Below are positions 27,001-33,000 of a stretch of 64,000 bases of DNA, one piece after another; the first letter of the stretch is position 1; each line of letters opens with the position of its first letter. The stretch covers positions 160,001-224,000 of the forward strand of contig OY970332.1 in assembly GCA_963717435.1 (NCBI GenBank). The letters are read 5' to 3'. The position numbers are program-made. The DNA is from an uncultured bacterium. Lineage in GTDB: Bacteria; Babelota; Babeliae; Babelales; Babelaceae.

Positions 27001-30000
27001 CTGTTTTGAAAGACAAATATTACGTTTCTTTTTTCTTGATTTATAAAGCTGTAAGAAAACTCGGAGCCAACACCCAGACTATAAAATCTTGTTCCAACAA
27101 GTGGATCTTGGGCATCAAAAAGTGTGATTTTTCGATTTGTTGGAAAGCCCGTAAGCGCATATAAATCTATCTGTAAATCTTGAGTTGGAAAGAAATTATA
27201 ACCACCAGAAAAAACTATGTCATCGAGCCCAGTTTTTGATGTTTTAAAACTTGATGCAGGGCTAATTTTAGAATCGGATCGCACATGTTCGGTTTCTATG
27301 CCAGTTGTTGCTTCTAGCCACCAGTTTTTTGATCTAATATAACGTAAGTTTAAAATCGCACCGTCAGTTAGACGATTCTCGCAAATATCTGTTGGGACAA
27401 GTATATCGTTAACTATGTGCCGATCTCGCTTATAAACTATTGGCAATACTGTTGGCACCCAAAATGGTTTTTGCGGTATCGTACCAAGTAGCTTATTTAC
27501 TCTGAAAACTCGCCTGATTTTAAGGTTATAAACAAGTGAAATTGGGCAAATATTTGCCGCATTAAATATTATTAAGCTTAAAAATATTAGTTTGGATTTT
27601 TTTGTTAAAATTAAAGATATAAAACTGTTGCCGGACATAGCTACTCTCTTAATTTTTTATTAAAATTTTATTCACAATTTAATTATAGTTCACAACAAAA
27701 AAATATATTTGTAAAAAACAGTAATTTTGCCCCATGCTTTCTGTTTTAACGCGCCGCCATTTCAGGAAAATAATCAGGAGGCTATTTTGACATCAAAACT
27801 CATTATGTTAAGCTTTTGGCATGTGGAGAAAATATTAAAAAACAGTCACAATCGGAGTCATATATGAAAAAGATATCTTTATTAATATTACTAGCAACTA
27901 CGAGTTCTGTATTAGTCGCAGAAAAAAGTGAATTAGAAATTCTTAGAGAAAAGCATGATGCTGCACTTAAAGAAGTTGTAAAACATATTGATGACATGTG
28001 GTACGAAGAGGCAACAGTTAATTCGCACACAGTCAACCCGCAAATAGGTTTTGTCAGCGGCCCAATGGGTATTACTGATGGCCACTATGGTGCTTCATTT
28101 GGAACCACTCACACATCAACAACAATAAACAAGCTTTTTTTCAATACCCCTGAGGCTGGAAGAGAATACAACAAATATCTAAAAGCGTTGTCACCATTTG
28201 AGTGGGACATATTCAAAAAAGACTTAATCACAAGTATTGCAACAGGCATTGTTTCAGGCTTAGCTCTGAATCAAAAATTACTTGACCAAAAAACAGAAGC
28301 AGAGTGGTCAACTGTCGATAAAATTGCGGTTACAGCACCTTTCTTGGCACCGATTGCCGAAATCATCGCAACCAACTTACTTGAAAATCCTATGAAATAT
28401 TTTAACAGCCGAACACTATCGGTTCATGATAACCTTTATGGAAATCTAAGTTGGAAAACAACTGGTAGAATATTGGGGCATGTTATTATGTCATATGTAA
28501 CACTTGGTGGAACAGCAATTGTAAAAAAAGCTGTATTAGCAAAGTAAAGTTTAATTAAATAACTTAGTATGGCTCGCAGATAACTCTGCGGGCCATTTTT
28601 TTGTTGTAAAATAAAATATAAATAGTAAACTTTCGTGAGCAAAATTAATTAATCAAGTTTCATTTAACCCGATTCTTTAGGAGACATCATGAAAAACAGA
28701 TTTTTCTTCCTGCCGTTTTTTTTTACCCTAACGACTATTAATATTTTTTCTAATATTTCTAATAATAAAGAGCTGATTCTAAAATTAAATAAAATAGGCG
28801 CGATAAAGTTTGAAAACGTAACACTTGAGGGAGGCATAGTCTCCCCATTTTATTTTGATATGAGGCTTATAATTTCTTATCCAGACGTGTTAATAAACTT
28901 TGCAGACGCGATAAAAGGAAAAATGGAAAATATAAACTGCGATGTGATTTGTGGCGTGCCTTATGCCGCTGTTCCTGTTGCAACTTTGGCTTGTGCGAAC
29001 ACAAAGACGCCCATGATCATGCAACGGAAAGAGCCCAAATCCCATGGCACAAAAAAGATGCTTGAGGGGAACTTTAAAAAACAGGATAAGTGCTTGATAA
29101 TCGAAGATGTGATTGTAACCGGAAACAGTATTAAAAAAAGTGCAGTAATATTAGAAGATCATGATTTGATTGCACGCGATGTTATTATTCTGATTGATAG
29201 AGAACAGGGGGGCGTTCAGCGCCTTGAAAAAGAGGGGTTTAGGGTTCATACGATATTGCAGCTATCAGAAGTGATTCAGGTTTTACTTGAAGAAAAATTA
29301 ATCACACAGGCACAAGTGGATATTGTTAGAGATTTTTGCGCAAACAATAGAGTTTGAGTCTAAAAAACTGGAGATGAGTTATGAAGAAAAATCTAATCTT
29401 AATAGCTGTATTTATAAATATAATTTTTATAAATACAGCTAATTCTAAAAGCTTAAATTATAACATTTTTGGATATGCGATTAATTCTCCAATAGGGGTT
29501 GCTGCATGCCCGATAACAACAAGTAAGGGTATAAAATCTATATCAAAAATGGGTTATGATATTATAACTTATAAGACAATTAGAAGCTGCGAACAACAGT
29601 GTCATAAGGCTCCTAATATTTTTTTTGTAGACTGCAAAAGAAAAATTAGGAGATCTGATATTTGTGGAAAATTTTGTGCAGTTGGCGAACATGAACCAAC
29701 TGATCTGATAAAAAGAGATAATAGTGATAGTTGCTCTGACGAATTTTTAGATAATTTAACAATTACTAATTCTTTTGGGATAAGTTCTCAAGATCCAGAA
29801 GAAACAATTAGGGACATAAAATTAAGCAGAGAAATGCTTCAAGATGGCCAGGTCTTAATAGTATCTGTTTATGGTTCAGGAAATACATCCTCCTGCGCTA
29901 AAGCTCCGGAGGACAGGAAAGAACAGATAGATGACTTTGTAAAAACAGCAAAAATAGCTGTTGCAGGTGGCGCCCAGATTATCGAAGCTAATTTATCCTG

Positions 30001-33000
30001 CCCCAATATTGCGGACAATCAAAAACTTATATACCAGGACCCAATATTGGTCCATGACATTTGCAGAGCCATAAATCAAGAGATCCCCGAGATTCCGTTA
30101 ATTGTAAAAATTGGTTTGTGTGAAAATTTAGATATCATGAAAGATATTTTTGTCGCTGCACATAACGGCGGAGCTAAGGGAATATGTGGAATAAATACTG
30201 TGCCTGTCAGTGTTGTTGACGAATTGGAAAGACCAGTATTTGATGAACAAAGAAAGATGAGCGGACTATCAGGTTCTGCCATATTTGATTTAACTTTAGA
30301 ATTTGTAAAAAATGCAAAAAAAATAATTAAAGAAGAAAAATTAGATCTAAAATTATTTGCAACTGGAGGCGTCACAAGATGGCAGCAGTTTGATATCTTA
30401 CTTGCTGCAGGCGCAGATATTGTGCAGTGCGCAACTGGTGCGATGTGGAACAAAACTCTTGCGTTAGATTATCATAGTAATCATAGTTCAAAAAATTGTG
30501 ACCCAGAAAAAGTGGATCTGATTAAAACACTTTTTGGTATCGAAGCAATAAAAATTAAAGATATACAAATAAAAAGTGGCGCAATATCACCGATATATTT
30601 TGATATGAGATTAATTATCTCATACCCAGAAGTTTTAAAGCATATTGCGATAGAACTTAAAAAATTATTATCAAAATATAAGTTCGATATCGTCTGTGGG
30701 GTGCCATACGCTGCTGTGCCGCTAGCAACCAGCGTCTCTTTGCTTGGCAAATATTCTATGATCATGCATAGAAAAGAGGTAAAATCTTACGGCACCAAAA
30801 AAACTATAGAAGGCAATTATTCACAAGATAATATTTGCGCCGTAATTGAAGATGTAATTACAACAGGTTCCAGTATTTTAGAAACAGTAAAAGTTTTAGA
30901 AAATAATGGCTTAATTATTAATGATATTTTTGTACTTATCGATCGAGAACAGAACGGCGTTGAAAATGTTCAAAAACATGGCTACAAAGTTCACCCATTA
31001 TTTACGATCACCGAGATACTACAAGTTTTACTTGCCGAAAAACTTATCACTCATAACCAGTTTGCTACAATCAAACAGTTTTGCCTGGATAACAAAATTA
31101 ACATATAAATAAGTAAATAGGGCCCGAGATTGGGCCCTATTGCTTTAAACACAAAAATTATTATTAAAAATTTATACTGACACTTGTGTTTGTGCGTCTT
31201 CGATTTTTGTATACTCAGATTGTTCTTCAAATAAATTGGAAAGCTCCATGGCGCGGGCAAGTCGCGTTAAGCCGATACCACCACCAAATCTTTCGATCAT
31301 CTGTAAAGACAAGTATTCATCAAGTTCTTTTAGTACTCTATCTTTGCCAAATTTTGAGAATAATAAGCTACAGTACTCGCCATTTTCTATAGTAAAAAAT
31401 CTTTCGCGCATGCGGTTAATATCTGTTTCTCTTTCTGCTGACCCAATAGTCTCCATGCCATGCAACAGGATATCTATTTTGCTATAAACGCCATCCCCTT
31501 CTGATTTCATGTTCCAAAATGGATTTGTATGCTCTGGAAATTTTTCAAGACTTATAGAACTACCATATTTTTTTGAAAGAGCAGTTTCATGTATAGCTTC
31601 AAGTATATCAGTTTCATAAGCTTGTGCGGCGCTTAAATAATCTATAGTGATTGGCAAATCGAAACCAAGAAATAGAAGAAGTTCTTCTTCAAGTTTTTTA
31701 AGTTCATCAAATGTTCCATGGGACTCAAACTCAAACATTGGAAACACTCTTTTATGACGACCCTCGATTGGGGTCGGCTCGTCGCGATAACTTGTTGTAA
31801 CACAAAATACGCCGGGCCAACTTGGATTTTTTAGCATCTCATATTCCAGCCACATCTGACCCGTCTGTGGGAGAGGGAAAACTTCGCCTCCAATACTATA
31901 CTCTGTTATGGTCTTGGGCTGCTCGCATGCTGCCAAAATCGACGTCCGTGATTGGGCCGGGACCTCTATAAAGCCCTTTTTTTCTTGAAAAAAATTACGC
32001 AACTTACGAACCATAAAGTTGTACTGTAATGTATTATTCATAAAATACTCTCTCTTTTTTTTTGGGGGTTACTAAACGCCTCTTGTACTTTTTTTGCACA
32101 AATTGGAACTAATCTAGTGTTGGTGCAACTCAGTTGTCAACAAAAATTAATAAGATAAAAATAATTGAGTTTTTTACTTGCGAAGTAGTAAGTTAAGCGT
32201 GTTAGAATTTTACGCTAATTTATCAGAAAAAAAGTCTGGAGTTTTATGCTGGCTTCAAAAAAATATCTGTATTTAATTATATTTGCTTACGCATTTTCTA
32301 CGTTCGCTCAAGGGATAATCGTACCCATATATGCATTTTTTGTTCAAAAAATTGGGGGCGGGCTTCTTGAAACTTCTTGGGCAATTTCGATCTATTCCAT
32401 AACAACTGGGGTGCTCACAATTTTGATACACAAAACTAAATGGAGCCATAAAAATAGAAAGCTTTGTTTGTGGCTGGGTTGGTTTTTGTGGCTACTCAGC
32501 GTGGGCATATACTTTATAATGAAAAATATTTTTATGTTATATATCTCACAAATATTAAACGCAATCGGCGACTCTATGGCTCAGCCAGCATTTGATGCTG
32601 AACTTTCTGAGATAGTAAGTGATGATTTATCAGGTGGCTGGGCGCTGTTTGATGGCACCATTAGTATTTTTTCTGGCATTGCAGCATTATTGGGAGGGTT
32701 TATTGCGACATATTACGGATTTGGTGTCTTAATAAATTGTGTAATTACGATGGCCGCGATTTCTTTTTCTATGATCGCTTATTATACATATGCAACTGAG
32801 TAAGTGGGTAAATAATATGAAAAAAATATTTTTTTTATTAGTTTTTTACAATTTAATAATCTTTTCAAGAGATGAAGACGAAGTTGGTCATGTCTTTGAA
32901 GGCAACTTAGCATTAAAATCATCGCAAGAGCCTGGCCCACTATTTTGTTTTGGACAGACGGTTATAGATAAAGGGGACAAACAACTTTATATTTTTGCAG

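Follow-up and report, generated by a model that had tools for sequence, protein, structure and literature searches.

A stand-alone asparaginyl-tRNA synthetase-like protein as a candidate source of dihydroorotate in pyrimidine synthesis

In textbooks, carbamoyl phosphate and aspartate are always the starting compounds of de novo pyrimidine synthesis. The window, by which we mean the whole 64,000-nucleotide stretch of Babelaceae DNA analysed, carries genes for later steps of the pathway next to a short paralog of asparaginyl-tRNA synthetase (AsnRS), and this raises the question of where the dihydroorotate for these genes comes from and whether the paralog could provide it.

The window locus and the AsnRS-like protein

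The features of the locus are the following, all three ORFs lying where the preliminary description had placed them.

28569-28596, plus strand: terminator-like hairpin and T-run at the end of the upstream gene (consensus match only)
28689-29357, plus strand: OPRT, 222 aa (ORF; TIGR00336, 125 bits, over the cut-off of 107)
29381-31108, plus strand: DHODH-OPRT fusion, 575 aa (ORF; DHO_dh, 65 bits; TIGR00336, 136 bits, over the cut-off)
31116-31141, no strand: GC-rich hairpin between the stop codons of the convergent genes, resembling a terminator when read on the minus strand (consensus match only)
31172-32041, minus strand: AsnRS-like paralog (P0001), stand-alone class II catalytic domain, 289 aa; candidate dihydroorotate-forming enzyme

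The stand-alone OPRT is the second one at the locus, and both it and the fusion protein begin with a hydrophobic leader; the DHODH part of the fusion is divergent and class-1-like, with the motif NLSCPN. Since the first hairpin closes the upstream gene, the OPRT/DHODH-OPRT pair probably forms a unit of its own. The paralog adjoins this pair, as had been described, but it is convergent with it across a 63-nt gap that contains the second hairpin, and it is therefore not co-transcribed with the pyr genes in this genome. Profile searches of the genome, which is 88.8% complete, found no ATCase, CarA or AsnRS, neither type of PyrC and no amidohydrolases, while GatB, one AsnB-family gene and a single canonical tRNA-Asn of 75 nt are present. 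The only PF00215 match was rejected as PyrF, being hexulose-phosphate-synthase-like instead, consistent with the earlier statement that this genome, put at 89% completeness, has no true PyrF.

The only domain match of the paralog is PF00152 (48 bits, starting at residue 10). The fold is that of a class II catalytic domain, motifs 2 and 3 included, and the AlphaFold model (pLDDT 94) gave AsnRS as the best Foldseek matches. The N-terminal OB-fold anticodon-binding domain is absent, as it is from 12 longer homologs, so that the description of the protein as an AsnRS catalytic domain lacking the anticodon domain is borne out. Its scores fall far under the cut-offs for AsnRS (25 against 343 bits with the asnS profile) and for AsnA/PRK06462 (17 against 389 bits), also as first described. 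Compared with AsnRS (class IIb; TIGR00457; PDB 9sh8, 1x54 and 2xgt), the fold is alike (TM 0.70-0.74 over the query) and the ATP- and Asn-pocket residues align, whereas the paralog lacks the C-terminal FPR segment as well as the OB-fold, has a two-helix insert at about residues 208-244 and family-specific C39, R32, W176-N177, K188 and R251, shares 16-23% identity, and is tied to pyr genes.

Fourteen residues (E40, T60, Q62, E66, R86, E88, H96, F100, E104, E106, D190, E197, R204 and R260) are 100% conserved in all six groups of the family, and the conserved residues align with true AsnRS, including positions of both pockets. The Asn-type pocket, for whose residues (QxxQLxxE, the first Glu of ExE and the Arg after the motif-3 strand) we assume the roles assigned in AsnRS, is represented by invariant Q59/Q62/E66, E104/E106 and R204; the stretch QTGQMWLE doubled as the search pattern. 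Cys39 is likewise invariant, and the Asp-binding Lys is missing. By alignment, the paralog keeps the predicted Asn- and ATP-binding residues of AsnRS. The gene family is very large, 7998 of 8000 scored candidates having been taken as members, and these are frequent in both marine phages and giant viruses.

Exchange of the paralog with early pyrimidine genes

In one gammaproteobacterial order, non-carriers show the arrangement k10-[pyrC pyrI pyrB carB carA]-pyrE-pyrF-pckA (L349 and L350; rearranged in L339), and carriers show k10-[paralog]-pyrE, directly in 7 of 16 loci and with one additional ORF in 2 further loci. Among the 86 genomes of the order, ATCase exceeded the cut-off in 0 of 18 carriers and in 53 of 68 non-carriers, in line with the earlier observation that carriers here lack pyrB; 16 of the 18 carriers had been pre-selected through the protein search, and the genomes are incomplete MAGs in which kin are not independent. 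All 18 carriers have pyrE. The swap appears to have happened several times within the order, as judged from trees of flanking genes: on the PckA tree 7 changes are required, of which starred branches force at least 3, carriers were grouped in 0% of its bootstrap trees, and a single origin was rejected on both the PckA and the k9 trees. Two genomes (G087 and G103) keep pyrE-pyrF with the slot empty, and downstream genes can therefore outlast both routes.

Across genomes generally, pyrD, pyrE or pyrF lies near the paralog in 36 of 79 loci with a called paralog ORF, or 35 of 80 loci at 50 bits or more, close to the 34 of 80 first counted. ATCase and PyrC were each found in 0 of the 36 pyr-linked carriers, and DHODH in 33. 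The preliminary description had carriers lacking carbamoyl-phosphate synthase (CPS), ATCase and dihydroorotase. CarA was matched in 5 of the 36; two of these matches adjoin an ornithine-carbamoyltransferase-like match. The distribution is complementary to that of the displaced genes, with the exceptions G048 and G121 lying outside the counted sets. Two carriers retain pyrB: in G121 the paralog is directly 5' of a true pyrB-pyrI and PyrC has no match, and G048 retains pyrB and pyrC. CarB was not found in either genome, and their pyrB is therefore without CPS. In G038, partial copies of carAB/pyrB lie on small contigs, and G044 has a PyrC-like gene. A hidden dihydroorotase among the amidohydrolases of carriers was rejected, the best matches being TRZ/ATZ, NagA, HutI/F, guanine deaminase, urease and TatD.

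Among the 12 longer homologs, 10 have a domain of DHODH or OMP decarboxylase: 8 are DHODH-paralog proteins from two lineages, 1 is a paralog-OMPDC protein, and an apparently frameshifted DHODH case (P0280) was left out of the clean fusion count. P0273 (GIY-YIG) and P0278 (low complexity) are unrelated fusions. At L168, paralog and fusion partner are separate neighbouring genes. Shared locus or fusion with retention of the downstream genes was found overall but not in five DPANN carriers, which gave no DHODH match, nor in most viral records. No transporter, carbonic anhydrase, amidotransferase or ammonia gene recurs among the neighbours of the paralog. Most carriers are viruses or belong to host-associated taxa; true AsnRS is present in 12 of 37 carriers and missing from 25, and within the order it was found in 0 of 13 carriers and 0 of 13 non-carriers.

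The in-situ replacement of the block, the repeated swaps, the fusions and the pyr clusters in giant-virus bins and phages (below) support the initial proposal of a replacement of CarAB-PyrB-PyrC by the paralog, with DHODH receiving its product. On this genomic basis, the paralog is very probably a one-protein substitute for CPS, ATCase and dihydroorotase, giving dihydroorotate to PyrD-PyrE-PyrF. It would take the slot of CarAB, PyrB(I) and PyrC (CAD in eukaryotes) and presumably give their product, with one 289-aa protein of unrelated fold in place of five genes and apparently no need for carbamoyl phosphate.

Viral copies and a tRNA-like partner RNA

The giant-virus loci L189 and L208 combine DHODH, UMP synthase and the paralog, and phage L631 has a run of DHODH-like gene, paralog, tRNA-like RNA and PRT-like gene. 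Viral loci with pyr neighbours numbered 0 of 80 in one scan, as first reported, and 6 of 80, 5 of 80 and 8 of 120 in others, so the zero holds for that scan and not as a rule. DHODH exceeded the cut-off in 0 of 30 viral records, and a DHODH query against viral contigs returned nothing beyond its own two records. The genes of P-SSM2 and P-SSM7, annotated 'tRNA ligase', and Pithovirus A0A481Z9R2 belong to the family. An OPRT query against the phage collection left P-SSM2 and P-SSM7 unmatched, although pyrE has been reported in P-SSM2 (PMC1079782). T4-GC194 of P-SSM7/P-SSM2 (PMC3037559) and 144 nucleocytovirus AsnRSs (PMC11304981) have been treated as translation enzymes without assay.

Directly 3' of the paralog, 72 of 80 marine-phage (cyanophage-type) loci encode a tRNA-like RNA with the anticodon GUU, a long variable arm and U37, and in some marine phages pyrD/pyrE also lies beside the two. 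In a search that started from the RNA and did not use the protein, 103 of 118 matches again lay directly 3' of the paralog. The cloverleaf is 100% paired, with compensatory changes at 17 of 20 pairs, which together with the discriminator (G73 in 154 of 154) and CCA (encoded in 75 of 154) fits a tRNA; it also has U1-A72 in 146 of 154 and one extra nucleotide in the D-loop. Rfam at the gathering score gave no family for the RNA in L218. Canonical tRNA-Asn has a short variable loop and, like decoding tRNAs, a purine at position 37, whereas this RNA has a variable region of 14-44 nt (median 26 nt) and U37 in 88 of 90. When 80 cellular loci and also the window were scanned with a covariance model, the matches were ordinary tRNAs only, none adjoining the paralog. 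An obligate protein-RNA pair was rejected: no paralog turned up in the 10 kb searched around 13 third-clade RNA loci, and two complete phages encode the paralog but neither the RNA nor pyr genes. Together with the invariant AsnRS-type pocket residues, the Asn anticodon makes asparagine better supported as the candidate substrate. The RNA, which the preliminary description lacks, raises a possible tRNA-dependent mechanism and also revives tRNA charging by the phage copies as a rival.

Proposed chemistry and competing explanations

We favor a scheme in which the alpha-carboxyl of asparagine would be activated in the manner of AsnRS, either as Asn-AMP made from ATP or by drawing on Asn-tRNA. Addition of CO2 to the alpha-amino group would close an N-carboxyanhydride as AMP or tRNA leaves, and the side-chain amide nitrogen would attack C2, forming the six-membered ring and releasing the alpha-carboxylate. 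This rearrangement of the anhydride to dihydroorotate is proposed chemistry; the net reaction that we infer is Asn + CO2 + ATP -> dihydroorotate + AMP + PPi. BioD and TsaC/Sua5 use ATP to build a ureido group from a CO2-derived amine carbamate, and a BioD/TsaC-like adenylation of the N-carbamate would have the same net outcome, but those enzymes have other folds, and in the paralog an amide would act as second nucleophile, with activation probably falling on the alpha-carboxyl. Aminoacyl adenylates give N-carboxyanhydrides within seconds at physiological CO2, according to part of PMC4262824, which calls a role for these compounds as metabolites unsupported so far. The scheme as a whole, dihydroorotate from activated Asn and CO2, appears probable to us, as do Asn and CO2 as the substrates; the N-carboxyanhydride route, taken singly, may apply, although we lean slightly against it.

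A tRNA as Asn donor is more tentative still: the enzyme might strip Asn off a charged tRNA, carboxylate it with CO2 and release dihydroorotate. Bacteria would use their ordinary tRNA-Asn for this, and marine phages a special long-armed tRNA-Asn that does not decode and that either the host or the enzyme would charge. Glu-tRNA serves tetrapyrrole synthesis, and there is a dedicated non-decoding tRNA-Gly; we know of no case in which tRNA-dependent metabolism feeds pyrimidine synthesis. The GatCAB route to Asn, as part of PMC1635274 describes it, also uses aminoacyl-tRNA as a metabolite carrier, and the partner RNA resembles such systems in U1-A72 and G73 but differs in its long variable arm, GUU and U37. 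In the literature covered (mostly open-access journals and the main texts of bioRxiv preprints), we found no description of the RNA and no paper that ties pyrimidine synthesis to the family.

If correct, the scheme would be a second entry to pyrimidines, cheaper in genes and outside CPS/ATCase feedback, with an asparagine-to-nucleotide route new to pyrimidine biochemistry and a biological use for amino-acid N-carboxyanhydrides. Uncultured host-associated bacteria with pyrD/E/F but no pyrB/C would have to be judged anew for auxotrophy, a very large family would be reassigned, and the unrecognised RNA would gain a function. If tRNA is the Asn donor, many viral 'AsnRS/tRNA ligase' genes would become nucleotide-supply genes, and translation machinery would feed de novo nucleotide synthesis.

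It is rather unlikely that the paralog is an ATP-driven dihydroorotase only, adenylating the beta-carboxyl of host-derived N-carbamoyl-aspartate and then cyclising it, CPS and ATCase having been lost because the intermediate is imported. Archaeal asparagine synthetase works by beta-carboxyl activation. It has the same fold and is named in part of PMC2821294; the host-associated or viral carriers, the paralog-pyrB-pyrI order without PyrC in G121, and the basic R32, K188 and R251, which could hold a second carboxylate, also fit such a cyclase. Yet no transporter recurs beside the gene, pyrB in G121 and G048 has no CPS partner, the pocket, with E66 and E104 but no Lys, is of the Asn type, and the Asn-anticodon RNA is left unexplained. 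Other substrates for dihydroorotate, for example Asp-tRNA or a combination of Asp with ammonia and CO2, are unlikely, as is a route by way of a covalent intermediate at Cys39. The invariance of that residue speaks for it, and an extra D-loop nucleotide of the type found in the RNA blocks bacterial amidation of tRNA-Asp (in part of PMC1635274), so the RNA might stay aspartylated; against this, U1-A72, which most of the RNAs have, is given there as the amidation determinant, the Asp-binding Lys is absent, and neither an amidotransferase nor an ammonia gene recurs nearby.

That the paralog makes asparagine with ammonia, in the way of archaeal AS-AR or of AsnA, is highly improbable. AS-AR/AsnRS2 (PDB 3p8t), AsnA, EpmA/YjeA and Glu-Q-RS resemble the paralog as stand-alone synthetase cores with a job beyond ordinary charging (part of PMC2821294), and of the 5 DPANN carriers 4 have AsnRS but lack GatB, a setting that needs free Asn. 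None of these relatives, however, has a link to the synthesis of nucleotide rings or adjoins a dedicated tRNA-like gene; the family profile is nearer AsnRS (56 bits) than AS-AR (27 bits), carriers of the order show no depletion of AsnB-family genes (13 of 18, against 26 of 68 non-carriers), one being present in our genome too, and the pyr evidence would have no explanation. We also consider it unlikely that the paralog is an anticodon-independent AsnRS charging tRNA-Asn for translation (in phages their own long-armed tRNA), with the pyr neighbourhood secondary. The fully kept active site, the RNA downstream of most cyanophage-type copies and beside most protein-independent RNA matches, its G73 and frequently encoded CCA, the many carriers without AsnRS and the 'tRNA ligase' annotations agree with such a role. 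It leaves unexplained the replacement of five pyr genes, the exclusion of ATCase and the fusions, and it sits poorly with true AsnRS in a third of carriers and in neither group of the order, with U37, and with the lack of the RNA near the gene in the cellular loci and the window. Charging and the preferred formation of dihydroorotate can be compatible if the tRNA step is one that the enzyme catalyses both forwards and backwards.

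The paralog and its own genome

The ORFs named in the preliminary description, OPRT, DHODH-OPRT and a 289-aa paralog, were all recovered at its positions. The features in the window are as follows:

28689–29357, + strand: OPRT (ORF call)
29381–31108, + strand: DHODH-OPRT (ORF call)
31172–32041, − strand: AsnRS-like paralog, 289 aa, class II synthetase core, PF00152
28689–28760 and 29381–29450: hydrophobic leaders of the pyr proteins (likewise at L005, L008, L015, L017, L049 and L082)

The paralog matched PF00152 at 48 bits, as a class II synthetase core alone, and scored 25 bits against the asnS profile (cut-off 343). 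The best structural matches of its predicted structure (pLDDT 94) were AsnRS, consistent with the AsnRS fold and lone catalytic domain described previously. It is a member of neither AsnRS nor AS-AR/AsnA, and belongs among the catalytic-core paralogs reused in metabolism, a class described in a passage of PMC2821294. The paralog indeed adjoins the pyr pair as claimed, but in convergent orientation, with a hairpin in the 63-nt gap between them.

ATCase, PyrC, amidohydrolase, CarA and AsnRS were not found in the window's genome (88.8% complete), which has GatB, one AsnB-family gene and two OPRT copies; all gene absences reported here rest on incomplete MAGs. Its PF00215 match was rejected as PyrF, in agreement with the earlier reading of an 89% complete genome with no true PyrF. 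Babelota DHODH, OPRT and OMPDC (PyrD/E/F) start with signal-peptide-like hydrophobic leaders, a sequence feature that suggests export. The missing PyrF, and leaders on these proteins but not on the paralog, fit poorly with a pathway role. Elsewhere in the window are four tandem paralogous ORFs of 260–330 aa with leaders and a common C-terminal motif (21354–25206), a saccharopine-dehydrogenase/homospermidine-synthase-like gene (35021–36481), whose domain resembles one following the paralog at L018, and an FAD-dependent amino-acid-oxidase-like gene (36684–37778).

Pyrimidine genes of carriers

Among the best 80 of 402 confirmed genome matches, 36 of the 79 loci with a called paralog ORF had pyrD, pyrE or pyrF (previously 34/80), mostly as the immediate next gene on the same strand. 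Gene complements were examined in these 36 pyr-linked carriers and 14 of the 44 others (13 in later tests). ATCase over cut-off and PyrC of either type were each found in 0/36, DHODH in 33 and CarA in 5. AsnRS was missing from 25 of 37 carriers. Among five DPANN carriers, AsnRS occurred in four, PyrF-like genes in two and a DHODH match in none, a pattern at odds with the pathway role.

In the gammaproteobacterial order containing G026, 18 of 86 genomes carry the paralog, 16 of them selected earlier by protein search. ATCase over cut-off occurred in 0/18 carriers versus 53/68 non-carriers (Fisher p 7e-10, kin not being independent), extending the 0/15 reported previously, and pyrE in 18/18 versus 55/68. 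The two carriers not preselected (G061 and G073) likewise showed the order paralog-pyrE-pyrF. All 20 non-carrier loci fetched around pyrB had pyrB-pyrI-pyrC, with carAB in 15 and pyrE-pyrF in 14. We found that the arrangement was k9-k10-[pyrC pyrI pyrB carB carA]-pyrE-pyrF in non-carrier loci L349 and L350, k9 and k10 being flank genes, and k9-k10-[paralog]-pyrE in carriers such as L037, L030 and L044, with pckA and yggS beyond the slot in both. The paralog therefore fills a five-gene slot between the same flanks, which supports the replacement proposed earlier; k10-paralog-pyrE was uninterrupted in 7 of 16 carrier loci. Mapping the two states takes 7 changes on PckA (a tree of 21 rows, where starred branches force at least 3) and 4 on the k9 tree (at least 2 forced). 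Displacement may have happened several times, or an ancestor may have had both and its descendants lost one or the other; redundancy is implied in each case. The 55 pyrE-positive non-carriers had ATCase in 52, frameshifted ATCase pieces in one and an empty slot in two (G087 and G103), so pyrE-pyrF can persist without either route.

A less likely explanation is that the paralog is solely an ATP-driven dihydroorotase acting on imported N-carbamoyl-aspartate, replacing the PyrC step alone. This would suit G121, where the paralog immediately precedes pyrB-pyrI and no PyrC, DHODH or CarB match was found. G048, a carrier outside the pyr-linked 36, keeps pyrB and pyrC, as had been noted for one carrier, with no CarA or CarB match. 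We prefer the hypothesis that the paralog is a new entry into pyrimidine synthesis, which the unusually convergent genomic support makes very probable.

CTP synthase lies within ~3.4 kb of the paralog at Babelota loci L003, L004, L017 and L021, three without pyrD/E/F nearby. Among DPANN archaea, the paralog lies between an RNA 2',3'-cyclic phosphodiesterase and Hef nuclease (L023, L028, L050, L059 and L063) or follows the PolD large subunit (L054, L057 and L065). An arginine operon of G101 encodes CarB fused to an ornithine-carbamoyltransferase-like domain (L401:8123–12178, 1352 aa).

Fusions, viral copies and a phage RNA

Twelve longer homologs comprised 8 DHODH-paralog fusions, one paralog-OMP decarboxylase, one apparently frameshifted DHODH case and two unrelated proteins. 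Seven DHODH fusions came from one lineage (its six full-length members fall in one cluster), in addition to P0131. This lineage nests within giant-virus-bin sequences, beside L168, where DHODH and the paralog are separate neighbouring genes; L189 and L208 combine DHODH, UMP synthase and paralog. Three viral scans of partly overlapping sets gave pyr genes at 0/80, 6/80 and 5/80 loci, so the earlier 0/80 held in one scan and not in the others; metagenome loci gave 3/80. DHODH over cut-off was found in 0/30 viral records, which, with so few pyr genes, suggests that most viral copies rely on host enzymes or act otherwise. Phages, a giant-virus locus and a Rickettsiales MAG have, along with the paralog, short proteins that score far below family cut-offs:

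L077:4222–4986, L208:5169–5864, L631, L624: short DHODH-like (~230–255 aa) and PRT-like (~130 aa) companions

The paralog in P0273 follows a fused GIY-YIG endonuclease domain that may mark a homing element.

Phages P-SSM2, P-SSM5 and P-SSM7 carry the paralog, labelled 'tRNA ligase' (a table row of PMC3037559), and P-SSM2 has pyrE (a passage of PMC1079782). ARAGORN called tRNA-Asn immediately behind the paralog in 72/80 cyanophage-type loci, in 17/80, 1/80 and 3/80 loci of other sets and in 0/80 cellular loci; the partner RNA was not found near the paralog in cells.

L218:4249–4336 and 150+ phage loci: class-II-type tRNA-like RNA, anticodon GUU, U37, G73, long variable arm

This RNA is previously unrecognised; it scores under Rfam thresholds and often escapes ARAGORN. 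Its length was almost always 83–95 nt; U37 was present in 88/90, and the cloverleaf was 100% paired, showing compensatory change in 17/20 pairs. In 50,697 phage records it matched solely six, of P-SSM2, P-SSM5 and P-SSM7. Scanning by RNA pattern, without reference to the protein, returned 120 loci with 118 true RNAs; 103 had the paralog just upstream on the same strand, and the other 15 had <600 nt upstream. At eight loci, pyrE-like or DHODH-like genes were present as well, no more than 1.5 kb away, the short PRT-like gene being OPRT by context only. Across 154 distinct RNAs, with U37 and the D-loop fixed by the search pattern, G73 was invariant, U1-A72 occurred in 146 and an encoded CCA in 75; the variable region spanned 14–44 nt. 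Of 25 RNAs found with a second pattern, 10 had the paralog and 13 lacked it despite room for it (0/13 within 10 kb), and two complete phages had the paralog with a canonical tRNA-Asn as sole tRNA-Asn; like the lack of this RNA near the paralog in cells, these cases speak against an obligate pair. A third RNA clade without the paralog nearby lies beside thymidine-kinase-like and PhoH-like ORFs (labelled by sequence look). In P-SSM2 (L002, AY939844.2), tRNA-Asn is annotated at 164094–164179, and the RNA matches 162083–162168, directly after the paralog. Near the paralog at L144:2830–2937 and L483:6371–6478 lies a related RNA, also long-armed, whose loop is CUGUCUC (anticodon GUC, U37).

Active site and proposed reaction

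The pocket was aligned with true AsnRS and AspRS, two motifs doubling as search patterns. AsnRS-type residues E40, T60, Q62, E66, R86, E88, H96, F100, E104, E106, D190, E197, R204 and R260, which structural work assigns to holding Asn and ATP in the normal orientation, were kept at 100% in the pyr-linked, fused, DPANN, phage and giant-virus sets. This conservation suggests that the whole family likely shares one activity, in which activation of asparagine at its alpha-carboxyl has probably been retained. Family-specific additions are C39, R32 (86% in one set), W176, N177, K188 and R251.

Physiological CO2 turns aminoacyl adenylates into N-carboxyanhydrides in seconds, and other activated esters form them likewise in bicarbonate (sections of PMC4262824). 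Activated asparagine would form an N-carboxyanhydride, and attack of the side-chain amide on its C2 would give dihydroorotate, freeing the carboxylate. Dihydroorotate formation is a known side reaction of the Asn anhydride, of which our literature search retrieved no published account. The route would require just the AsnRS half-reaction and CO2, which would account for the pocket being intact although the anticodon domain is missing. We favor this Asn + CO2 chemistry with moderate confidence. Our searches, in which subscription literature was largely uncovered, found no published description of the paralog's pyrimidine role or the partner RNA.

Asn-tRNA could also be the donor, although we regard a tRNA-dependent entry as less likely than not. 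In its favor, U1-A72 is the bacterial amidation determinant; against it, an extra D-loop nucleotide prevents amidation in tRNA-Asp (abstract of PMC1635274), and the phage RNA has one extra D-loop nucleotide. AsnB-family genes were found in 13/18 carriers and 26/68 non-carriers of the 86-genome order, so that free Asn may still be the donor despite the carriers without AsnRS.
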